Shown: in pieces, positions 18,779 to 35,675 of the stretch
Position numbering within the stretch: the stretch's first letter is position 1
Layout: every line of letters begins with the position of its first letter
Source of the DNA: Promethearchaeota archaeon Loki_b31
Lineage (GTDB): Archaea > Asgardarchaeota > Lokiarchaeia > Sigyniarchaeales > SOKP01
Assembly (NCBI GenBank): GCA_005222975.1
Contig: NJBI01000037.1
Location: 1 to 35,675, forward strand
Length of the DNA stretch: 35,675 bases
Direction of reading: 5' to 3'
Notes under the pieces: model-generated
Seen by the model: the letters and a program-made list of their open reading frames with translations, nothing else
The model's database searches: none
Told to the model about the DNA's origin: nothing
Translations under genes and position numbers: made by a program

Positions 18779-20965
18779 ATGACATTAAAATTTGAAAATT
18801 TAAGTTATATACAAGTAAAAGATACTTTAAGCAGCAAAGAAGAGAAAATTTTAGTTATTGATTGTTCTGAGTGTTCAGGGGCACTAGAGACTCTATTTCA
18901 AAATGGAAAATGTATATTATGTGTTCTAAAAAATTTATATTTAAATAGAAAAAAAGTTTTTATAAATTTAACAACAAAAAGCCATGATCCATTAATCGAA
19001 CGCGATCAAATTTCATTATTTTTGAAATATTTTAAAAGAATAAGCTATATTAAAAAAATTTGGAGAAAAATTGAGAGTATAGGAAAAAAGAAATGTATGT
19101 ATCAAGAATTTAATTGTAAAATCACAGCTTTATCTGCTAAATTTCTCTCTTTTAGTAATGATCTTATCTTAAATCCACTTTATGTTTTCAATTTTATTTC
19201 TGGAAAAATTAATGAACTTAAAGATCACGAATTTTTTAATATAGAGTGTCAAAATTGCTCTAAAAAGGTATTAGTTTTACTGGAAGCTCTCTTAAATACC
19301 CTAAATGAACTGAAAATCATTCAAAGTTATAAAAGATTTCTTAAAAGTAATAACAATTCCAAAGATTTAAACAAATTTTACGAAGAATTCTTTTTCAAAA
19401 AATCGTTATTTTTTGAGGAAAAAAAAAGTTTTGACAAAGCTTTAATAGTTTCTACTGGTGATTTATTTGAAAAATATAAAACGGGAGATAATCAAATATT
19501 TCAAATTTCTATCTATAATATTGCTAATGAATATGAAAAAAAATATACTGTACAATATTCATTTGAATCCGTAGTTGATGAAAACTATTTTAAAAAGGTT
19601 GTACAAGATGTCAAAAACAATTTAAAACTCCTCGATATTAATAAAATCACTCCGTTAGAAAATTTAATAAATATATACAAAAAAGAAGCTTTAATTTATT
19701 TAGATTCAAAATATAAGTTTCCATTAATCGAAAGGGAGAGAATTGCGTACATCGCTGCCTTACGTAAATTAAACCTAGAAAAGATTTTTCCTCTATTAAT
19801 TGACGATTTTATTGAAGAAGTTTTTTTAGATTCTCCAAATGATAAGATATATATAAATCATCAGAAATTTGGACGTTGTAGAACAGATATTAAATTTGGA
19901 TTAAAGGAAATTGAACGATTAAAAACATTTTTAAGAATATATAGTGGAAAGAGACTTGACTATTCCAATCCAAGTATTAAAGTAGTAATAAAGAATAAAT
20001 ATTTTTATTGCAGGTTTGCGATCGATGTTGAACCAATTCAGTTAAATCATTTCGCGTTAGATATAAGAAAGTTAAATAAAAACATATTAACTGTTCAAGA
20101 TTTACTGAAAAACGGAACCCTTAATCCCGCAATAGCCGCATTTTTATATTTATCGCTTATAAGAAGAGTGAATATTACGGTTACTGGTGAAACTGATACT
20201 GGAAAAACAACATTAATAAATGCATTAGATTTATTAACACCAAAAGAATTTCGAAAAATATATGTAGAAAATGTAATTGAATCATTAAACCAATCAAAAT
20301 ACGAAAAACATCAACTAAAATATAAAGTTGATTCACTCCAAGTAGGATTAAACCATAAACTTTCAAAACAAAATCAAATTAGGAATTTATTACATCGTAC
20401 GCCTGATATTATTTATTTAGGAGAAATTCTAACTAAAGAGGAAGCGGAGGCAATGTTTCATTGTTTAGCCGCGGGGTTAAAGGGATTTCAAACGATTCAT
20501 TCTAACGACATTGCTTCTTTCATAAATAGAATAATTCATCATTTCAAAATTCATATTTCGTGTTTAAGAGATTTAGGTCTTTTAGTTTTCATGAAAAAAA
20601 ATCGAGAAAAAAGATTTGTTGATTCAATTTCGGAAATAAATAATAATATTGAAGATAATGAAGAAATTTATCAAACCCTTTTCAAATTCAATCCTCAAAA
20701 AAAAAACTGGGCGAACCTAATAAATTTATTTAATTCAAATATTATCTGTAAGCTAAGAAAATACGAAGATATTAGTAAAGAAAAATTTCAAGTATTATTT
20801 AATCTTTATAAAGACATGTTTAATACTCTTCAAAAAATTGATAAACTATCAATTAATAAATTAATTAAGTTTTTTGATCAAGTTTCTTTTCATTCTTCTG
20901 ATAATCTAGAGAATCTTTGTTTATTTTGGGAAAATTGGAAAAACTCATGTAGTTTAAATTTATAA
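18779..20965 (+). CDS. TadA/CpaF/VirB11-family pilus assembly ATPase with Cys-rich N-terminal extension
   Basis: IEEVFLD, LDIRK, Walker A GETDTGKT, Asp box ENVIE, Walker B PDIIYLGEI, His box TIH. Confidence 0.9.
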   Translation: MTLKFENLSYIQVKDTLSSKEEKILVIDCSECSGALETLFQNGKCILCVLKNLYLNRKKVFINLTTKSHDPLIERDQISLFLKYFKRISYIKKIWRKIESIGKKKCMYQEFNCKITALSAKFLSFSNDLILNPLYVFNFISGKINELKDHEFFNIECQNCSKKVLVLLEALLNTLNELKIIQSYKRFLKSNNNSKDLNKFYEEFFFKKSLFFEEKKSFDKALIVSTGDLFEKYKTGDNQIFQISIYNIANEYEKKYTVQYSFESVVDENYFKKVVQDVKNNLKLLDINKITPLENLINIYKKEALIYLDSKYKFPLIERERIAYIAALRKLNLEKIFPLLIDDFIEEVFLDSPNDKIYINHQKFGRCRTDIKFGLKEIERLKTFLRIYSGKRLDYSNPSIKVVIKNKYFYCRFAIDVEPIQLNHFALDIRKLNKNILTVQDLLKNGTLNPAIAAFLYLSLIRRVNITVTGETDTGKTTLINALDLLTPKEFRKIYVENVIESLNQSKYEKHQLKYKVDSLQVGLNHKLSKQNQIRNLLHRTPDIIYLGEILTKEEAEAMFHCLAAGLKGFQTIHSNDIASFINRIIHHFKIHISCLRDLGLLVFMKKNREKRFVDSISEINNNIEDNEEIYQTLFKFNPQKKNWANLINLFNSNIICKLRKYEDISKEKFQVLFNLYKDMFNTLQKIDKLSINKLIKFFDQVSFHSSDNLENLCLFWENWKNSCSLNL

Positions 20966-20981
20966 ATTATTAAAATCATAT

Positions 20982-21395
20982 ATGACAAATCTGTTAGAAA
21001 AGGCATTATTAACGGGTTTTGGAATTTTAGTTTTAACTATTTTTCTATCAATGATTAATCCATTTATTGTACAAATTTCTGAATTTAATGGAACGATAGA
21101 AAATGACATTATAGCCTATGAAAATTTCTTTAATGAGGTAGATATAGCTGTTAAATTCATCATTGAGAATCCAGATGCGATTTATTTAAGAGAAATTGAT
21201 TACCCTAAAAATTTGAATGTTACATTTAATGATTTTTATGTTAAATACGATTTTTTAATTGAAAATAAATTAAATTATAAAATTTATGAATATAATAAAC
21301 CTTTCATCAATATTTTTTACAGAAATTTATCTACAACGACTTTTATATTAAATGTTTCATGTTTTCAAAATTTTATTGCTGTATATTTTAATTAA
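20982..21395 (+). CDS. pilin-like protein lacking a prepilin leader
   Basis: N-terminus MTNLLEKALLTGFGILVL parallels the mature Flp pilin GNLLEYALLIGLAIFIF; sits between the ATPase and the platform gene. Confidence 0.65.
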   Translation: MTNLLEKALLTGFGILVLTIFLSMINPFIVQISEFNGTIENDIIAYENFFNEVDIAVKFIIENPDAIYLREIDYPKNLNVTFNDFYVKYDFLIENKLNYKIYEYNKPFINIFYRNLSTTTFILNVSCFQNFIAVYFN

Positions 21396-21404
21396 TTTTA
21401 AAAC

Positions 21405-22943
21405 ATGACTGATTCTATGGTAATAAACGATATATTAATCAGTTTCTGTCAGAAAATTCATCCTTATAACATCCCTTGTATAAAGTTCAAGGAATTGGAT
21501 TTTAGGTATAAATTAATATACAAAAAAGAATATAAAATTGACGAAAATGATATTAATAAAGCTAGTTTTATAATATTTCTAATATCTTTTATAGTCCTCT
21601 TTATTACTTCAATATTTATCACAAATTTTAGTCTAATAATGGTAACAATTTATTCTTTTATCTTAGCATTAATTTTTTCTTATACTTTTAATATTAGGTT
21701 TTATAAAGAGATTAAAAAGAAAGAGAAGCAAATAAATGCCTTATTGTATCTTGTTAAGATTTATTTTTCCTTAATTCAGAAATCATTAGGAGAAAACGCA
21801 GATTATTCCATCAATTTTATTAAGTTAATCAAAGAGTATAAACTTCCAATATCAAAAGATTTTGGAGAAATATTAAGTAAAATTCAACTGGGTCAAAATC
21901 CAGAAGCCTTGTTGTCTGAGATTATTACACCCTCAGAAGACTTTAATTCGTATTTAAAGGGCTTACTCTTATCAAATTTCAGTCATGATAACATTAGGAA
22001 TGGTTTTAGTGAAAATTCATTAGAAAAACAATTTAGAACATATCTGAGAGAAATTGAATCTAAATTAACTGTTCTATTCTTTATTGGCTTATTTTTCCCC
22101 TTAGGTTTATGTTTTTTAATCTTATTTCAAAGAATTAATTATTTTTTATTAATTTCTATTTTACCGCTCTTTTTCGTCTCTTTAAAATTTTTAAATAAAA
22201 AATTTTTAAAAAATGACTTTTTTTTGTTAGGATTAATAAACAATTACTCAAAGAAGGAGAAAACAAAATTTGATGAATTTATTTCTTTCCTTATTGGGTT
22301 TACTATGAATTTAAAGAGAAATATATCTCCTGAAATAGCATTTCTTAAATCATATTCCCAAAATAAACGACAATTTAAATTATTAGAAAAGCCGTTAAAA
22401 TCACAAATTTCCCAACTTTTAAACTTCTCTTGCTCATTTGACGAAATACTAGAAAATCTACATATTGAATTGAAATCGATACGATTTAAATTAATTTTGG
22501 ATGTTATAGGGAAGATTGTTGCTGAGAATGCTTATCTCTCTCATGAAAAGATAACAGATATCTTAAATGTAATATCAAATCACCAAAAACTCGAAAATCG
22601 GTTAGAAATAATAATACGGGGAGAAAGATTTAAAGTTTTATTGTTTTTATTTTTATTACCTATAATTATTGGAGGAATTGGAGGGTTAATTCCCTTATTT
22701 AATTTTGTGATTAGTAATGTTACTTTTAATCCTAGTTTCAACTTTGCTTCTTTATTCGATTTAATATTTACTTATGATTTTATTATTATATTTTTCTCCC
22801 TCTTATATTGTGTTTATGTATCCTCCTATTATTTTTTGAAAATAATAAACTATGAAAGAAGGAAAATCTTATTGGTTGTTTCTAATACATTATATGGGTT
22901 AGCATTTTTCTTCTCATGTATAAACATATTAAATTACATTTAA
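21405..22943 (+). CDS. TadB/TadC (T2SS-F/ArlJ-like) membrane platform protein
   Basis: Multiple TM segments separating two helical soluble domains (ISKDFGEILSKIQLGQNPEALL; ISPEIAF); located downstream of the pilus ATPase. Confidence 0.78.
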   Translation: MTDSMVINDILISFCQKIHPYNIPCIKFKELDFRYKLIYKKEYKIDENDINKASFIIFLISFIVLFITSIFITNFSLIMVTIYSFILALIFSYTFNIRFYKEIKKKEKQINALLYLVKIYFSLIQKSLGENADYSINFIKLIKEYKLPISKDFGEILSKIQLGQNPEALLSEIITPSEDFNSYLKGLLLSNFSHDNIRNGFSENSLEKQFRTYLREIESKLTVLFFIGLFFPLGLCFLILFQRINYFLLISILPLFFVSLKFLNKKFLKNDFFLLGLINNYSKKEKTKFDEFISFLIGFTMNLKRNISPEIAFLKSYSQNKRQFKLLEKPLKSQISQLLNFSCSFDEILENLHIELKSIRFKLILDVIGKIVAENAYLSHEKITDILNVISNHQKLENRLEIIIRGERFKVLLFLFLLPIIIGGIGGLIPLFNFVISNVTFNPSFNFASLFDLIFTYDFIIIFFSLLYCVYVSSYYFLKIINYERRKILLVVSNTLYGLAFFFSCINILNYI

Positions 22944-22961
22944 GAAAGAGTTAAATATTTC

Positions 22962-23264
22962 CTAACTAAATAAAAAAACATAAATTAATTCTATAAACAA
23001 AAAAATTCCAATAAAAACAACAAGTAATTTAGAATAAGACACCACGGTTTTAAAGAAAATAGTTTCAAATCCTTCACTAAAAGCAAAAACCTCTATTTCA
23101 TTTAAAATTTGAAAAAATGGCATCAAAAAAATAAAAAACAAGACTATAGAAATAAAAATTGTAATAGGCTCAGCAGATATAACAGAAAACGCAAAAATAA
23201 AAATAAAAAATGCCAATAACGAATAGAATTCAAATAGAATTAAATTTAACTCTGACATGTACAT
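22962..23264 (-). CDS. small hydrophobic membrane protein
   Basis: 100 aa, about 3 TM segments; no family recognised. Confidence 0.6.
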   Translation of the reverse strand: MYMSELNLILFEFYSLLAFFIFIFAFSVISAEPITIFISIVLFFIFLMPFFQILNEIEVFAFSEGFETIFFKTVVSYSKLLVVFIGIFLFIELIYVFLFS

Positions 23265-23456
23265 TATTTATTAAAGAAAAAACTATTTAAATTTCTAAGA
23301 TTATAAAAAGTATTATAAATAAAAATAGAGAATTAGGAAGAATTTTATAATATATTATAATGTTAATAATTATTTTGAAATTATATTTTTATTAAAAAGA
23401 TTGCTATAAAATTACGAATTATTATAGAATTATATGAAAATGGGTAGATTAAAATT

Positions 23457-23945
23457 ATGAGAAATTTAAAATTGAAGGGATTAAAGTATAGTAATGGGAA
23501 ATACGACCTATTTAATGAACGGTTTGTATTTTTCCCTCCACAAATCATTAACATTTTATCATCAATTTATGGGGAAGGTGTAAAATCTTTATTAGTGTGG
23601 TTGGGTAAAAAGGTTGGTTGGGCATTAATTCAAAAGTGGGATGAAAATTTAAAATCTAAAACATTAAATGATCTAGTCAATCAATTTAGTAGTATACTAA
23701 GCAATCATGGTTGGGGTCGTTTTACACCCAAAAAAATTTCTGATAATTTAATTGTAATTGAGCTACATCATAACATTTCTAATGATTTAGATAGCAAATC
23801 AAAATATATCTGTTATTATATAACAGGATTATTAGCTGGCTTTGGCGAATATGCTCTATACAGAGTAAATGTTATAGAAAATAATTGTTGTATAGAAAAT
23901 CCTAGTTTTGGCTCATGTGAATTTAGAATTGAGAAAAGTATTTAA
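23457..23945 (+). CDS. V4R-domain protein
   Basis: ERFVFFP, LGKKVG, HGWG, CYYITGLLAG, ENNCC...CEFRI. Confidence 0.88.
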   Translation: MRNLKLKGLKYSNGKYDLFNERFVFFPPQIINILSSIYGEGVKSLLVWLGKKVGWALIQKWDENLKSKTLNDLVNQFSSILSNHGWGRFTPKKISDNLIVIELHHNISNDLDSKSKYICYYITGLLAGFGEYALYRVNVIENNCCIENPSFGSCEFRIEKSI

Positions 23946-23954
23946 AGACATAAT

Positions 23955-24341
23955 TTACCAAGGGTCCCATTCTTCAGGGTTAAGTTCTTCACTTTCATTA
24001 TTTCCAATATTTTCCTCAGTTGGTTTAGCGGGCAATTTAAGATAATCATTATTTTCCTCAACTACTTGTTTTTGGGGTTCAATCTCGCTCGAAATTAAAC
24101 TTTCTGTTAGAATTATTTGATCTTCGCCAATTACAACATCTTTAAAAGCAGTGATTAAGGATAGAAAATTAAAAAATTCTTCTTTAGCCATTTCTACGAT
24201 TATTGACTCGTTATTTTTTAATAAAGTAAGTTTAATTGTCCGAACTTCACCACTAATTTCTACTGAAGTTAATTCTATACTTTCATTTTTATTTTTTAGC
24301 TGAATTTTCCACGACGTTTCTCTAGTTTTTTCAATTTCCAT
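23955..24341 (-). CDS. hypothetical protein with acidic tail ending EEWDPW
   Basis: Apparent four-strand plus helix N-domain followed by a disordered acidic C-terminus. Confidence 0.7.
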   Translation of the reverse strand: MEIEKTRETSWKIQLKNKNESIELTSVEISGEVRTIKLTLLKNNESIIVEMAKEEFFNFLSLITAFKDVVIGEDQIILTESLISSEIEPQKQVVEENNDYLKLPAKPTEENIGNNESEELNPEEWDPW

Positions 24342-24475
24342 TCTTTAAATTACACTCTTAATATAATTAAAATTCAATAATTTAATAAAAATTAACTAAT
24401 TTAAAATTTTCTTTATAATTTTTTTCCTTTTTAACTAATAATACTAAAAAAGGGAACTCACTTTTTTCAAATTAT

Positions 24476-25138
24476 TCAACAAAGATAATTGAATATTAAA
24501 AAATTATATGAAAAAAAAATAAGGATAACGATTGGAGGTCTATATTGGGTTAAAAATTGAAATTTTTCTGTTTTATTATTATAAAATAGAATTAATGATT
24601 TTAGGAGATATTTTTCGCCAGTGGATTTATTGAGTTGTGAAAAATCTATAAATTTATAAAATATTTCAATAAATATTTTTTGTATTTTTGAGAAATTTTC
24701 ATTTTCAATAAAAAGCATCTCAAATACATTCATATTTGTTAAATTGTGTGTAATTAAATAACTAATTATTCCCATTATTAAATATAATAATAATAAAAAG
24801 GAAAAAAATTGAAGTATCCATTGAAAATTTAAATAATATATTGGATTAAAAAGAAACAGCATTGTTAATAACTTACCATCACTCCCCCCTATTATCTTTA
24901 AACAAAATAATATAAATGATAAAAAAAACGCTAAAAAAAGAAACCATATCTTAACTATCATAAAAATTATTATGTTATTATAAAAATGCAAAAATTCAAT
25001 AAAAATTAAGAAGCTACCTATTAAAAAAAACCCCGATAGAACTTTATTGGGTATGATTCTAAACCTGATATCTCGATACAAGCAATAAAATAAAACTATA
25101 TTTGAATAGAAAAAAAAAAAACACACATTTAAAATCAT
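24476..25138 (-). CDS. A24 prepilin peptidase (TadV/FlaK-like)
   Basis: Both catalytic Asp motifs present: YRDIRFRIIPN and IIGGSDGK; multiple TMs. Confidence 0.88.
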   Translation of the reverse strand: MILNVCFFFFYSNIVLFYCLYRDIRFRIIPNKVLSGFFLIGSFLIFIEFLHFYNNIIIFMIVKIWFLFLAFFLSFILFCLKIIGGSDGKLLTMLFLFNPIYYLNFQWILQFFSFLLLLYLIMGIISYLITHNLTNMNVFEMLFIENENFSKIQKIFIEIFYKFIDFSQLNKSTGEKYLLKSLILFYNNKTEKFQFLTQYRPPIVILIFFSYNFLIFNYLC

Positions 25139-25142
25139 TTGT

Positions 25143-25427
25143 TCATAATTCTCCTTCCCAAATTTCTATAAATTTCTTTAAACTCTTAGCGCGAATGTTT
25201 TCAGTTTTATATCGATATATTTTAATCCGTCCAAATACTTTTTCTTGAATTAGATTTAAGGATTTTAAATGATTTAGATGAGATTTAACGCTTGTGTGAT
25301 TCAGTCTTGATTTTTTTATAATTTGAGATATTGATAATTCATGGTTTATAGCAAGTATTTTTAATATTTTTATTCTCGCTTTTGAACCCAATAAATTCTC
25401 TATGTTAAAATTTTCTTTAACTATCAA
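25143..25427 (-). CDS. ArsR-like winged-helix protein
   Basis: LLGSKARIKILKIL...LSISQI...SHLNHL...FGRIKIYRY; start overlaps cdc6 stop (TTGA). Confidence 0.85.
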   Translation of the reverse strand: MIVKENFNIENLLGSKARIKILKILAINHELSISQIIKKSRLNHTSVKSHLNHLKSLNLIQEKVFGRIKIYRYKTENIRAKSLKKFIEIWEGEL

Positions 25428-26638
25428 ATCTTAATTCCCTTAGATTGTAAAATGTTTATGATTATTTCTTCAAATTTTGAAAGTGAAATCTCTTGAACTG
25501 CAACTAAACCCCTTCGACCCTTTATAGCCTCACTTTTGATTTCCACAGTAATTAAATTCTCTCTTTTAAAATCTTGAAGATAATTCCATAATTGTGAATA
25601 CGACCGCGGTTGAATTCCTAAATTTTCGCATAAAATCAAATATGAATTTGTAATTACTAATGAAGAAATTTGAATCTTTCCACTTTTCTTTAAAGCTTTT
25701 ATAATTGCTAATAAGAAAATTACTTTCTGTAATGTCATATATTTTAAAACATCTAGAGTAGAAAATGGAACTATATCTTGATTTCCAAGACGTACGCATT
25801 CCATAGTGATATATTTTAAATCCTGACTTTCAGCAATTTTACTTGATTTCCATAAAAGATTTAACCCATATCTAATATCTCCACTTTGATAAACCAAATC
25901 TGAAATAGTTTTGATTAATTTGTTAGAAATTGCATTTTCTTTTAAACTTATCTCTGCTCTGTACTTCAAAATGTCATACAATTCCTCTTTTGTGTAATAT
26001 TTAAATTTGATTATGTTCCTTTGAAGCGTACTCATAGTACTAACATCTAAGTTATTTAAACACGAGATGTCTCTCGCTATTCCTATAATAGAAATGCGTT
26101 GTAGAGCGTTAAGAGAATCATCGTTAATCCTCGTAAGAGAATATATCAAGTCTCCACCTTTATTTATTAAATAACCTAATTCATCCAATATAATTAAAAG
26201 TTGTAAATTTTGGTTATTAACGGAGTCTACAATAATATCTAATAAATCTTGGGGCGAATATCCTCTTTTTGGAAAATTTTTATTAAGTGCACGAACGATT
26301 TTGATTAGAACTTTGTAACTAGTTCTTTCTTTCCTACAATTTATATGTACATATTTGATTAATATTGATCTTTTTTCTGCAGCATTTATTATCATCTCTC
26401 CAAACAATTTAATTGTTGCTGTTTTCCCTATTCCCGTTTTTCCTATAATTAATATTTTACGCGATAAAGAATTTGGATTTGTTATTAACACTAAAAAAAG
26501 TTGAGATAATAGCGCCAATTCCTTTTCTCGATGTAGTAACTTCTTTGGAACGAAATTATTTTCAAGTTTACTCTCGTTTTTGAATAATGAAGGTTTTTTT
26601 AATAAATCTTCAAAGTAATCTATTGTTATAAAGAACAC
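25424..26638 (-). CDS. cdc6: Cdc6/Orc1 replication initiator
   Basis: LLHRE, Walker A GKTGIGKT, HINC, Walker B IILDE, GDIR, C-terminal winged helix with GRR wing. Confidence 0.95.
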   Translation of the reverse strand: MFFITIDYFEDLLKKPSLFKNESKLENNFVPKKLLHREKELALLSQLFLVLITNPNSLSRKILIIGKTGIGKTATIKLFGEMIINAAEKRSILIKYVHINCRKERTSYKVLIKIVRALNKNFPKRGYSPQDLLDIIVDSVNNQNLQLLIILDELGYLINKGGDLIYSLTRINDDSLNALQRISIIGIARDISCLNNLDVSTMSTLQRNIIKFKYYTKEELYDILKYRAEISLKENAISNKLIKTISDLVYQSGDIRYGLNLLWKSSKIAESQDLKYITMECVRLGNQDIVPFSTLDVLKYMTLQKVIFLLAIIKALKKSGKIQISSLVITNSYLILCENLGIQPRSYSQLWNYLQDFKRENLITVEIKSEAIKGRRGLVAVQEISLSKFEEIIINILQSKGIKI

Positions 26639-28877: not shown

Positions 28878-28987
28878 TGCTTCTGCCGGGATTTGAACCC
28901 GGGTCACGAGGGTGAGAGCCTCGCATGCTTAATCCTTTTTTCTGTGTTAAGAAATCAGTAAGTTTGACCGGACTACACTACAGAAGC
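28878..28987 (-). tRNA. tRNA-Glu(CUC) with 35-nt D-loop intron (28929-28963)
   Basis: Acceptor GCTTCTG/CAGAAGC-A, anticodon arm CGAGG-CTCTCAC-CCTCG, T arm CCGGG-TTCAAAT-CCCGG. Splicing restores GTGTAGTCCGGTCAAGCAT. Confidence 0.95.
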
Positions 28988-29241: not shown

Positions 29242-30276
29242 TTACATTGAAATTTGAACTTCATTTGTTATGAAGATTGGTTTAAGCAGGTTTACATAGT
29301 GGTCTCTAATAGAATATTCTGCGATCTTAGTTGCGTCTGAAATTAATTTTTGAGTTAATACGGTTTTTTGGTTAAACTCTCTAGATAATAACTTATCAGC
29401 TAAATATATTACCGCTCCTGTTAAAATAAAAGGATTTCGGCCACCTCGATGCCATTTAGTCAAGCTACTTAGAATTGTTCTGCATTTACTTGTTAAATTG
29501 CGTTTATAATCTTCTTTTGACCAATTACTTCCTTTTTTAATTAATCTATCTTCCAAATTTTTATGATTTATAATACTATCTATTAATCTAATTAGGTAAT
29601 CTTCACTTTTATGTGGAATTGCATTACTATTCAAATGAAATTTATATCTTATTCCATCTCTCAAAATTAGCCTTGGATTAACTCTATGACCAAAATTTTG
29701 AAAGGCATCAGAAATTTCATTTATTGTAACTGGGGCATTATGATACTCTTTGCGAACAGAATAAAAAATACAAAATGCGATCAAAGAAATATTATTTATG
29801 ATTTTTTCCTCATTTTTAACAATCTTTTTGTAATAATACGCAGCGTTGTTTCGGATATTTTTATTTAAATTAAGGTAAATTGATATTTTATTCAAGATAT
29901 TGAAGATTCTATATTCTGTTTCATGATTTTTAATCCTTAGAAATTGAGTATAGTTTTTCTTTAACCTTCTATATAATTTTTGCTCATCAGGCGGCAATAA
30001 TTTTCCTGTTTTATCTTTAAGATATTTTGACTTCTCATAATCTATAAAGGTCCCCAATCCCCCGATATAATCGGTTCTTTCTCCTAACGCAACATACTGT
30101 TTATTCAAGTTATTTTTAATATTGGTCTCATTAAAGATGTATGACGAATCCTTATAAATTTTATCTAATACTAAACCACATTCCTTACATGTCATTTCGA
30201 ATGAGTTTGTTATGACACGACCCCCACATTCAGAGCATTTTTCATAAACTTTACTCTTTTTTGTATTATTTACCAA
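29242..30276 (-). CDS. divergent TFIIB-family protein
   Basis: Zn ribbon CSECG...CKECGLV, cyclin-like repeats, GRNP..L.GAVIY, TQKLIS...EYSIRDHY. Confidence 0.88.
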   Translation of the reverse strand: MVNNTKKSKVYEKCSECGGRVITNSFEMTCKECGLVLDKIYKDSSYIFNETNIKNNLNKQYVALGERTDYIGGLGTFIDYEKSKYLKDKTGKLLPPDEQKLYRRLKKNYTQFLRIKNHETEYRIFNILNKISIYLNLNKNIRNNAAYYYKKIVKNEEKIINNISLIAFCIFYSVRKEYHNAPVTINEISDAFQNFGHRVNPRLILRDGIRYKFHLNSNAIPHKSEDYLIRLIDSIINHKNLEDRLIKKGSNWSKEDYKRNLTSKCRTILSSLTKWHRGGRNPFILTGAVIYLADKLLSREFNQKTVLTQKLISDATKIAEYSIRDHYVNLLKPIFITNEVQISM

Positions 30277-31036: not shown

Positions 31037-31717
31037 ATGGTTCGATGGACGGCAGATCATAATGTATATATAAAAATACTCTATTGGGGTATGGGAGGAT
31101 CAGGAAAAACAACTATAGTAGACACATTATATAGATTAACTAAGGAACAAAAAAAAGACATTACTCCAACTGGAAATCTAACTAAAATTTCTATGGCAAG
31201 CGGGTCAACATTATATTTTGATAGAGGTATTTTTCAATCAACTAAACAGAATAAAGTATATTACCATGTCTATACTGTTGCTGGGCAGAGCAGGTTCTCT
31301 CCTTTAAGAAAGAAGATTTTCAAGGGTACAGATGGGGTTATTTTTGTCGTTGATTCACAAACACATTTTTTTGAAGATAATATTGAGTCCCTAAAAGAAT
31401 TAAAAAATATTACAAGGGGTAAGTTAATTAAAGAAATTCCCTTGATAACAATGTTAAATAAGCAAGATCTTAGTGAAACTATTGGAGAAGAAGATTTTAA
31501 ACAAGTTCTCAAGGAGGAAAAACTCTGGTATGAACCTGATCATGAATTATATATTTGGAATCCCATAATATACAAAACATGTGCATTATACGACAAGAAA
31601 ATAGATGTTTATCGTAGTTTTACCGAATGCGCAAGAAGAACAGGGCTATATCAAATATATGGGGATGGCAAAGCACCTGTTGGAAATAATTTTAGCAGAG
31701 ACCTCCCTAAATTTTAG
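31037..31717 (+). CDS. MglA-like small GTPase
   Basis: G1 GMGGSGKT, G2 STLYFD, G3 YTVAGQ, G4 NKQD, G5 TCA. Confidence 0.92.
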   Translation: MVRWTADHNVYIKILYWGMGGSGKTTIVDTLYRLTKEQKKDITPTGNLTKISMASGSTLYFDRGIFQSTKQNKVYYHVYTVAGQSRFSPLRKKIFKGTDGVIFVVDSQTHFFEDNIESLKELKNITRGKLIKEIPLITMLNKQDLSETIGEEDFKQVLKEEKLWYEPDHELYIWNPIIYKTCALYDKKIDVYRSFTECARRTGLYQIYGDGKAPVGNNFSRDLPKF

Positions 31718-32267: not shown

Positions 32268-32876
32268 TTAATTTGTTATACTCATTTTTAAAGTTAATTG
32301 TGGAAAAATAAAAGTTATAACCCGATTAAAAGAATCTAAAACTCCTTTTCCTTCAATTGCTATTGTCTTATTAACAGAAATAAACTTAAACATATTGAAA
32401 TTTATTTCACTTAAAAACTCGTATTCGTTTAATTTTTGAGGATCTTCTACATCGTATTTATTTAATGAAATAACTATGGGAAGGTTATAAAATTCATTTT
32501 TAAACATAGTTTTTAATTCATTCCATGATCTCAAATTATGTTGTAAACATTGAGCTCTTGAATCAACAACAAAAATTAATCCATCAACACCGTTTAAAGT
32601 AGCGGGCCGGGTGCTTGCATAGAAATCTTGCCCGGTAGCAGAATAAATAAGAAATTTTAAACTCCATTCCGCACCCTTAAATTGTAAAACACCAAAATCA
32701 AACAATAAAGTTCTCCCAACGGTACTATCAATAGAATTTAGGTTTTCCTCTTTGTTGAAATAAGAAAATAATTGTTTTATTGATGTCGTTTTTCCTGACA
32801 TGGCAGGACCGTAATACACGATTTTAACTTGCAAATTTTTTTTCTCATAATCATATATCAAATTAATTAACCCCAT
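32268..32876 (-). CDS. MglA-like small GTPase
   Basis: KIVYYGPAMSGKTT, RTLLFDF, YSATGQ, DGLIFVVDS, NKYD. Confidence 0.92.
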   Translation of the reverse strand: MGLINLIYDYEKKNLQVKIVYYGPAMSGKTTSIKQLFSYFNKEENLNSIDSTVGRTLLFDFGVLQFKGAEWSLKFLIYSATGQDFYASTRPATLNGVDGLIFVVDSRAQCLQHNLRSWNELKTMFKNEFYNLPIVISLNKYDVEDPQKLNEYEFLSEINFNMFKFISVNKTIAIEGKGVLDSFNRVITFIFPQLTLKMSITN

Positions 32877-33763
32877 AAAGATTGCATACTATCTAAGGCA
32901 TTGACTTTTTTACCATTTTCAATTAAAATTGAAAAGTCTTCACCCCATTCTTTATTAATAAAAGATATTATTCTATCAATGGGAGCGTCTTCATAATCAA
33001 TAGTTTCTAAAAGAGTTTTACTCCCAATTTGCGTTTTCATTTCTATGTTATTTAATAGATTTAACCTAGATAAAATAGAAAATGCTCGTTTAGAACCTAA
33101 ATAAAAATTTTGAACCTCTTTTTTAAGGATATTCTTTTTCAATTCTTCTTTTTCTCTATTAAAATCTAATAGAACATCTACTAAATCTTCATCAATTTCT
33201 TCAGATTTAATTTTCCCTAATAAAACTCTTTTCATTTTGATGATGGATTTCTCAGTATCTTGGGAAATTTTTTGTAAAATAGTGTGTTCAAATTGAAGAT
33301 CAAGTAGTTTCCAATTTATGCCCACTAATTCGATAGAAAATGAGTTAGAAAAGAAAGCAATACCCAAAAAACAATTAATTTTTTTTTTAATGCTGTTAAT
33401 AAACTGACGAATCTTATCTTTTTGCTCAAGTATTTCAATTCCAATTAACCAAGAATTAAAACGCTCAAATTGGTTCAGAGCTTTGAGAGCAACACTAGTA
33501 GGACATCGTATATATATTTTTTGAGTATTGTAATCAATATTTTCATTCATTACTAAGTCATGATATTCTGTGTTAGAAATAAAATCCGTATAAAAAATAA
33601 ATTCTTTCCGAAAATGAATCAATTCTGATAAATCTATTAAAAAATCATCGATTTTCTCTGCGTTATTACCATAAACGATAATTGGGATTCTATTTAAGAG
33701 GGTATAAAGTATTAATGTTATATCAGTTGTTTTTAATTTTTCCAATAACTCAAAAAAAATCAT
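32867..33763 (-). CDS. core-DENN-like domain protein
   Basis: LILYTLLNRIPIIVYG...LIDLSELI...WLIGI resembles the cDENN alpha/beta pattern, followed by a helical region; lies between roadblock and GTPase genes. Confidence 0.55.
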   Translation of the reverse strand: MIFFELLEKLKTTDITLILYTLLNRIPIIVYGNNAEKIDDFLIDLSELIHFRKEFIFYTDFISNTEYHDLVMNENIDYNTQKIYIRCPTSVALKALNQFERFNSWLIGIEILEQKDKIRQFINSIKKKINCFLGIAFFSNSFSIELVGINWKLLDLQFEHTILQKISQDTEKSIIKMKRVLLGKIKSEEIDEDLVDVLLDFNREKEELKKNILKKEVQNFYLGSKRAFSILSRLNLLNNIEMKTQIGSKTLLETIDYEDAPIDRIISFINKEWGEDFSILIENGKKVNALDSMQSLWG

Positions 33764-33772
33764 TTTTTCACC

Positions 33773-34789
33773 TTAACCTTTGATAATTAATTCTCCTAGC
33801 ATAGTCTTAATATCAAAGGGCCTTTGATCCTGAATTTCAGACGCTCTCTTAATAAGAGAATGTATTTTGTTTGAGAATTGAGGAATAATTAATCGTATCA
33901 AACCTAGCTTTTGTCGGGATTTACCCATCTCAGTACTAAATATTGCTTTTCCCAAACCATGTATAAATTGAAATGAATTTTCACAATCTAACAATATACT
34001 CTCCGCATTCATTTTTTTAAGCAACCAAGCGCACCTATTTGCTGTTTGAAAAAGCGAATAGCTCATTGCGGAGATATTATCTAAATTTTTTTCCTTATCA
34101 TTGGTGTTTTTCAAAATTTTTGATGCAATAAATCCCCCTTCTATGGTAATATATGCATATTTTAAATCAGGAATTGCAATAGAAAAATTGCTTAAAACTT
34201 TTCTTAGCTCCATAGATATATTTTCTGATAAATTTAACGAAAAAGAAGACACTTTGAAATTAAAATTCTCATTCTCTTTAACATTGAAGCCTTTTATTAT
34301 GCTTTGAATCCGTTGTTCATCAAATTGAACTAATGGTGGTTTAAAAGATTCGCCAGAAGTAATGAGAGTAGTTTTGATCTTTTTTAAACATTCACTAGTT
34401 TGTAAAAAAATCCCCCCTAAATTTGTATTTGGCTGAGCAGTAATTGCTATAAAAAACTCGTGTTTATTATCGAGAATTCCTTGCTGTTGCAAAATCCTAT
34501 TCAAAGAATAATGTATTGGACTATTAAGAGGAGCTATTAAAATTTTTGCTTTCTTTCCCTCTATTAAGATATATTTTAAATCGTTTGGATGTAAATGTAT
34601 TCCAACATTAAAGATCGCACTAGTGGCAGAACTAACGTTAAAAATTTCATCTTTAGAAAACCAGACTCCTGCTGACTGAATTGGATTCCCATCTCTTTGA
34701 GTTAAAACCGCATTTTCTACTCCTTTCAACTGTTTTATTTGATCTAGGTGAATACCTATCTTTTCTCTTAAATCCATTTTAATTCGCAA
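33773..34789 (-). CDS. tandem Roadblock/LC7 (MglB-like) domain protein
   Basis: Two repeats: GVENAVLTQRDGNPIQS...SSATSAIF and DLKYAYITIEGGFIAS...ISAMSYSL...KLGLI. Confidence 0.88.
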   Translation of the reverse strand: MRIKMDLREKIGIHLDQIKQLKGVENAVLTQRDGNPIQSAGVWFSKDEIFNVSSATSAIFNVGIHLHPNDLKYILIEGKKAKILIAPLNSPIHYSLNRILQQQGILDNKHEFFIAITAQPNTNLGGIFLQTSECLKKIKTTLITSGESFKPPLVQFDEQRIQSIIKGFNVKENENFNFKVSSFSLNLSENISMELRKVLSNFSIAIPDLKYAYITIEGGFIASKILKNTNDKEKNLDNISAMSYSLFQTANRCAWLLKKMNAESILLDCENSFQFIHGLGKAIFSTEMGKSRQKLGLIRLIIPQFSNKIHSLIKRASEIQDQRPFDIKTMLGELIIKG

Positions 34790-34909
34790 CGTTCCTTTTT
34801 TAAATTAGTATTTTTAAATTAAAACTTAGATTTTTAAACTACGAATATTTGGAAAATTAACAAAACAAAAAAATTTAAAATGAACCCTTCTTATATATTA
34901 CTATAACAA

Positions 34910-35019
34910 ATCGCATCTTTACCGGTGTGAGCTTGGATTACGGTATGCAACCGTTAGATGAAAAGTTAATTCACTGATGCGATATAAAAAATGTAGTTAT
35001 AATTTTATCGATTATAACT
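34910..35019 (+). ncRNA. structured leader, probably 16S 5' external transcribed spacer
   Basis: Stems ATCGCATC/GATGCGAT, GTGA/TCAC, ACGGT/ACCGT and AGTTATAAT/ATTATAACT between TATA-like boxes and the 16S start. Confidence 0.5.
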
Positions 35020-35107
35020 GAAGAAAGTTAAATTAATAACCCTAAAAGTAAATTAATTCCAAATTTAAGAACTAATTTGCGACTAACTCAATATTTATTT
35101 GATAATT

Positions 35108-35675
<568 letters not shown>

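Follow-up and report, generated by a model that had tools for sequence, protein, structure and literature searches.

The window analysed here is a 35,675-nucleotide (nt) stretch of contig NJBI01000037.1 from the Lokiarchaeia-type Asgard archaeon Promethearchaeota archaeon Loki_b31 (assembly GCA_005222975.1); it is AT-rich, with a G+C content of ~27%. Our subject is the set of genes at 32268-34789, where the open reading frame (ORF) listing of the window gives three tightly spaced minus-strand ORFs, encoding in order a tandem-roadblock protein, a protein of predicted DENN fold and an MglA-type small GTPase. Across a 319-bp spacer, and transcribed away from this operon, lies an archaeal 16S rRNA gene (plus strand, start at 35109) that is truncated by the window end. 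An earlier note, made from the sequence of the window, had described the packing of the three genes and their divergence from the 16S gene, and we find both as described there. Coordinates of the features are collected in Table 1.

Gene anatomy and conservation of the operon

The two gene junctions can be read from the sequence. At the first, the TAA stop codon of the roadblock gene is followed by GGTGAAAAA (9 nt) and then by the ATG of the DENN gene, which agrees with the 9-nt gap and GGTGA ribosome-binding site of the earlier note. At the second, the note had reported a 10-bp overlap of the DENN and GTPase genes, and the shared segment ATGGGGTTAA is indeed present; that part of the claim holds if the GTPase starts at the ATG at 32876, but the starts of many GTPase orthologues align with the TTG at 32861, a reading that replaces the overlap with a 5-nt gap. 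The ATG at 32876, inside the conserved LWG-stop end of the DENN gene, may be an incidental by-product. The roadblock gene likewise offers two starts; its orthologues align with the ATG at 34777, not with the TTG at 34789, and judged by this alignment the 334-residue form is the more likely product, rather than one of 338 residues. The trio is tightly packed whichever GTPase and roadblock starts are taken. In the divergent intergenic region, the TATA-like stretch TTTAAAAA is a candidate promoter for the operon.

Table 1. Positions of the operon, its junctions and other features of the window (aa, amino acids)
Feature	Position	Strand	Remarks
Tandem-roadblock gene	33773..34789	-	338 aa from TTG at 34789; 334 aa from ATG at 34777
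DENN gene	32867..33763	-	298 aa; predicted longin-less DENN plus d-DENN protein
MglA-type GTPase gene	32268..32876	-	202 aa; 197 aa from TTG at 32861
Spacer GGTGAAAAA, roadblock/DENN junction	33764..33772	-	9 nt; Shine-Dalgarno-like GGTGA before DENN gene; read from sequence
Divergent intergenic region, operon/16S	34790..35108	.	319 bp
TATA-like A/T-rich stretch TTTAAAAA	34817-34810		~35-40 nt upstream of ATG at 34777
T2SSE-family ATPase	18779-20965		728 aa
Small protein of type IV filament gene set	within 18779-25138		137 aa
Polytopic membrane protein	21405-22943		512 aa, no Pfam match
A24 prepilin peptidase	24476-25138		
Cdc6/Orc1 gene	25424-26638	-	
TFB gene	29242-30276	-	

A profile search for the DENN gene gave matches in 108 of 201 sampled Asgard genomes (62 of the 85 high-quality ones), and the gene was single-copy in all but five of these 108. 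The matches were confined to nine of the 27 Asgard families sampled; in what follows f1 denotes the window's own family, f2 a sister family of the same order and f7 the largest family. For the neighbourhood comparison we used 50 loci from 49 distinct genomes, covering the nine families. Roadblock, DENN and GTPase genes stood in this order on one strand in 46 of the 49 genomes, the exceptions being one locus truncated at a contig end and two with a lone or divergent DENN gene. When the neighbouring ORFs were clustered, the trio alone was common to all families, and the overlaps or gaps between its members were always of few bases. That 46 of 49 genomes share the gene order and close packing goes far beyond chance, and the operon of the earlier note proves to be conserved across nine families. 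In families f5, f13 and f19, a tandem-roadblock profile retrieved nothing but single roadblock domains of ~130 aa; with these queries we did not find the operon in the three families.

Two DENN genes stand apart from this pattern. The lone gene in genome G138 has unrelated neighbours. Genome G183 carries a divergent paralogue (L039:4088-5969, 23% identity), also among unrelated neighbours; a 293-aa ORF without a Pfam match comes before this gene, and its vicinity contains no GTPase gene.

Folds and families of the three proteins

The GTPase is the most readily placed of the three. A phmmer search of PDB sequences with the 202-aa protein gave MglA of Thermus (3t12_A, E 3.3e-23) and of Myxococcus (E 1.4e-22) as best matches, followed by Ran/GSP1 at 2e-6 and by Rab and Arf at ~1e-4. 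Its segment GRTLLFDF aligns with ERTLFFDF of MglA, which contains the intrinsic switch I arginine (Arg53 in Myxococcus xanthus), and SATGQ aligns with TVPGQ of MglA, so that the Asp of the G3 motif is absent and the catalytic Gln is kept. These features extend through 18 orthologues from the nine families, in all of which the P-loop GPAMSGKT, R55, [ST]ATGQ with Q83, and NKxD (NKYD in the window) are conserved, with Ser or Thr replacing the G3 Asp in every case (SATGQ or TATGQ). By sequence, then, this protein is clearly of MglA type rather than Rab-like, which gives a more specific identity to what the earlier note had called a GTPase.

A second MglA-like GTPase gene (31037-31717, plus strand; PDB MglA match at E 3e-20) is convergent to the operon. 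In its product Ser replaces the intrinsic switch I Arg and there is a C-terminal extension. Only f1 had this gene beside the operon, with 79% identity in genome G147.

For the roadblock protein, Pfam Robl_LC7 recognized only residues 13-90 (E 4e-6), within the first of its two domains. An AlphaFold2 (AF2) model from an alignment of 23 orthologues (pLDDT 79, pTM 0.80) contains two roadblock units of alpha-beta-beta-alpha-beta-beta-beta-alpha topology, RD1 at ~7-144 and RD2 at ~189-319; the pTM value suggests that the two are modelled in a defined arrangement. RD2 superposes on MglB of Thermus (3t1r_A) with Z 16.8 and a root mean square deviation (rmsd) of 1.9 A over 132 of 133 residues, and further on Roadblock3 of strain MK-D1 (Z 16.3) and on Myxococcus MglB (Z 15.6). 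RD1, which carries a 20-aa insertion in the order of the source organism, matched SpLam (8fw5_G, a Lam/Ragulator-type chain; Z 11.9) and a Thorarchaeota roadblock protein (7f8m_A, Z 11.3). Foldseek reached E ~1e-6 to MK-D1 Roadblock3, Ragulator and MglB. The profiles of RD1 and RD2 align in register over 117 columns (hhalign E 8e-5, 17% identity), and this sequence relationship fits an old internal duplication. The two-unit model, the fold matches of both units and their mutual alignment confirm the tandem roadblock gene of the earlier note.

The roadblock protein ends in a short conserved helix (residues 327-337; 33773-33810, minus strand) that follows a low-confidence linker. Its motif is FDIK..LGEL in f1 and f2 and D/E-L-[KR]-[DE]-L-L in f7. 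The helix recalls the C-terminal helix of MglB, which makes an allosteric contact to MglA.

The 298-aa middle protein had no match in Pfam or NCBIfam, and among PDB sequences, phmmer and profile searches picked up nothing beyond spurious similarity of a helical stretch to ferritin (E ~4e-3). Its 355 close homologues are all of ~298 aa, all named 'hypothetical' and all from Asgard metagenome-assembled genomes; an additional 88 representative clusters carry the family down to ~20% identity. An AF2 model built from 41 family members (pLDDT 89.5, pTM 0.85) shows an alpha/beta core of five to six strands at ~1-150 and then an all-helical part at ~157-297. Strands at 28-32, 53-57, 83-87, 105-110 and 132-147, with helices between them, make up a five-stranded sheet in a three-layer sandwich. 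Rank 1 in an exhaustive VIA-align search with this model was the C-terminal DENN domain of FLCN (3v42_B, 6nzd_H; Z 12.2, 187 residues aligned, model 1-275), and further matches spanning the core and the helical tail were DENND10 (Z 11.1), SMCR8 (Z 10.8), C9orf72 (Z 10.2) and DENND1A (Z 10.1). Independently of the fold search, neighbours in the ESM Atlas came from the C9orf72-like, Folliculin_C, SMCR8_C, SPA, Avl9 and DENND11 families (scores 0.84-0.94). Residue 1 of the model aligns to FLCN residue 346, past the FLCN longin domain, and a longin (u-DENN) domain is absent from the protein. These predicted-structure comparisons support a DENN plus d-DENN fold with no longin domain. The earlier note's DENN-like middle protein is thereby upheld by the model, by the VIA-align ranking and by the ESM Atlas neighbours; in the comparison with known DENN and FLCN structures, VIA-align placed FLCN first, while Foldseek against the PDB returned nothing at E <= 0.001 and was not significant by itself.

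A possible objection to this assignment is that the protein is a degenerate P-loop/RecA-like ATPase of the secretion type, its likeness to DENN being that of any generic three-layer alpha/beta sandwich. HP0525 (Z 11.0), GspE (Z 10.7) and FlaI (Z 9.7) do come within ~1.5 Z of the DENN matches, the GspE and FlaI alignments extend to residue 260 of the model, and the top Foldseek rows, none of them significant, were ATPases of type III secretion systems and F1 ATPases. The reach of the alignments tells against such a remnant: five DENN-module proteins (VIA-align ranks 1-3, 5, 8 and 9) span core and helical tail alike (model residues 1-275 or beyond), with DENN-protein alignments reaching residues 275-284, whereas P-loop secretion ATPases, at Z 8-11, align mostly to the core alone, most ATPase matches ending near residue 150. 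A Walker A motif is absent, the conserved residues being R25, P27, R52, E74, R82 and W105, and the named ESM Atlas neighbours are all DENN-related, with no ATPase. Pfam searches of the 41 family members gave weak matches, two to Folliculin_C (best E 4.8e-4) and one to DENN (E 0.09). Furthermore, a resemblance of the DENN core to a minimal P-loop alpha/beta domain had already been pointed out (Zhang et al. 2012). We consider a degenerate ATPase very improbable and retain the DENN assignment.

Proposed mechanism and relation to known systems

We think it likely that this conserved Asgard operon encodes an MglA-type GTPase switch together with two dedicated partners, the tandem-roadblock protein and the DENN protein. 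While the analysis shows folds, GTPase motifs, gene anatomy and operon conservation, we infer complex formation, roles as GTPase-activating protein (GAP) and guanine nucleotide exchange factor (GEF), and a cellular process served; the self-contained GAP/GEF switch of which the earlier note spoke may be what such sequences encode. The tandem-roadblock protein would be the single-chain equivalent of an MglB homodimer, and a face of its pseudo-dimer would most likely bind one GTPase, in a 1:1 ratio. Like MglB, it would most likely accelerate GTP hydrolysis by bringing the Arg and Gln of the GTPase itself into place. The longin-less DENN protein would most likely dock on the roadblock platform, on the GTPase or on both; since a longin domain is missing from its chain, a roadblock platform provided in trans is a reasonable hypothesis. 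Platform and DENN protein together would resemble a split version of a eukaryotic DENN/FLCN-type module and might act as exchange factor, effector or scaffold.

The operon is not new, having been known as a prediction since 2020/21, in work that reportedly appeared in Nature in 2021. Liu et al. (2020/21, their Fig. 5b) predicted a widely conserved Asgard operon of Roadblock, small GTPase and DENN genes, with a GTPase from a family distinct from Rag, and regarded the module as a strong candidate GEF analogous to FLCN. Because the components, the phylum and the wide conservation agree, the operon of the window is very probably theirs; the two descriptions also share an FLCN-like module regulating a non-Rag GTPase. 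They differ in that here the GTPase is of MglA type, the roadblock protein is a tandem with an MglB-like RD2, and the DENN protein lacks a longin domain. The window is accordingly of value as confirmation. What it contributes is support at the level of structure, assignment of the GTPase to the MglA type, a second roadblock domain resembling MglB, and the finding that no gene outside the trio is universally linked; it also shows how restricted the 16S and pilus neighbourhoods are (below). More recently, MglA-like GTPases were described in MK-D1 in a study that did not treat the trio and found GTPase genes generally not in operons with roadblock genes (Tran et al. 2024). In the later literature that we searched, the module was neither mentioned nor tested, and we found no bench test of it.

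Three known systems invite comparison. First, the operon shares with the bacterial MglA-MglB systems of Thermus thermophilus and Myxococcus xanthus the GTPase sequence (E 3e-23) with its intrinsic Arg, non-Asp G3 and Gln, the superposition of RD2 on MglB (Z 16.8, 1.9 A), and the placement of regulator and GTPase genes in one operon. It departs from them in two ways: in MglB, single roadblock domains pair as a homodimer, while the Asgard protein joins two diverged domains in one chain, and in the Asgard operon a DENN-fold gene lies between the regulator and GTPase genes. We know of no bacterial MglAB system with a DENN-fold gene.

Second, eukaryotic DENN modules, FLCN-FNIP and C9orf72-SMCR8 likewise combine a DENN core with a helical d-DENN part, and they too are associated with a platform of roadblock/longin type and with a small GTPase. 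In the eukaryotic proteins, which target Rab, Rag or Arf GTPases, one chain includes the longin (u-DENN) domain as well; the Asgard trio has instead a separate roadblock platform and an MglA-type GTPase, and the identity is only 8-11%. Third, Ragulator (LAMTOR2-5) with the Rag GTPases shares the roadblock fold (Z 10-13 for RD1 and RD2 against LAMTOR, Lam and the C-terminal domains of Rag proteins), but the Asgard operon has no Rag-type GTPase with a C-terminal roadblock domain, and we identified no LAMTOR1-like wrapping subunit.

DENN/folliculin-type regulators were long held to be confined to eukaryotes. By uniting a DENN fold with an MglB-like platform and an MglA-like GTPase in one operon, the Asgard trio is a concrete candidate for the prokaryotic forerunner of Rab, Rag and Arf regulators. 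It agrees with an earlier proposal, in which the longin domains of DENN proteins derive from roadblock domains of MglB type (Zhang et al. 2012). A bolder version would make the trio an ancestral split DENN/FLCN module, in which the MglB-derived pseudo-dimer provided in trans the platform that was to become the longin domain, the DENN protein was a true exchange factor or co-GAP for the MglA-type GTPase, and the whole steered a type IV filament machine in several Asgard lineages. We consider this unlikely as a whole; if true, it would tie the origin of Rab and Rag regulators directly to a prokaryotic polarity switch.

Several points weigh against reading the operon as a GTPase switch with two dedicated partners. 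In the FLCN-FNIP and C9orf72-SMCR8 complexes the catalytic GAP Arg belongs to a longin domain, dimerisation being the main part played by the DENN domains, so that, by analogy, a GEF role for a lone DENN protein is not guaranteed, and it could be a scaffold or effector instead. Just past the DENN start codon, the coding strand has a run of eight Ts (ATG ATT TTT TTT; 33752-33760, minus strand); oligo-T can terminate archaeal transcription, and on this sequence co-transcription of the first two genes should not be assumed, an argument tempered by the commonness of T runs at 27% G+C. Contigs from a single metatranscriptome study contain 24-35% of the words sampled from this stretch, which we do not take as support for co-transcription. 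The DENN assignment comes from structure prediction at 8-11% identity, with P-loop ATPases scoring near the DENN matches over the alpha/beta core and with the negative Foldseek result given above. Finally, Liu et al. name the GTPase 'Rab-like', which bears on whether the operon is theirs.

Genomic neighbourhood and cellular process

The 16S rRNA gene next to the operon had led the earlier note to hint at growth or nutrient coupling. In favour of a switch functionally tied to growth rate or the making of ribosomes, the divergent 16S gene persists beside the operon in 27 of 30 loci of f1 and in the two f2 loci of the comparison. In the seven other families, no locus had a 16S gene within 4-5 kb of the operon, and nothing ties the proteins of the trio to rRNA. 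The adjacency is an order-level, lineage-specific synteny and, being absent from the loci of seven families, provides no argument for growth coupling, which we hold to be extremely unlikely.

MglAB controls type IV pili in Myxococcus, and a rather similar role would make the trio an MglA/MglB-type polarity switch for a type IV filament machine (Tad/archaeal pilus-like), with the DENN protein as adaptor or effector. The window does contain type IV filament genes 7-13 kb from the operon, among them a T2SSE-family ATPase, a polytopic membrane protein and an A24 prepilin peptidase (Table 1), and homologues of the membrane protein and ATPase lie 2.4 to ~13 kb from the operon in f1, f2, f3 and f12. 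Against a filament switch, the linkage is absent in f7, the largest family, and in f15 and f26; the contig that carries the operon lacks the membrane-protein gene in all three, this gene being found on a different one. The neighbours of the f7 operon are housekeeping genes, for a GPN-loop GTPase, an HD hydrolase, CTP synthase and NurA/HerA, and the membrane protein also occurs in families where the operon was not found. Moreover, the syntenic block includes TFB in f1, f2, f3 and f12, cdc6 in f1-f3 and FtsZ in f12, and may be plain synteny of core genes. The type IV filament link is a lead only, and a dedicated filament switch seems to us decidedly doubtful.

In f12 the FtsZ gene lies between the operon and a pilus platform-like gene and is divergent from the roadblock gene (L034:1445-2785, L043:7577-8917). 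The block of Cdc6/Orc1, TFB, pilus genes and operon may lie near a replication origin. The window also has two tRNA matches on the minus strand, one of 110 nt at 28878-28987, probably with an intron, and one at 600-662 that covers model positions 6-65 only.

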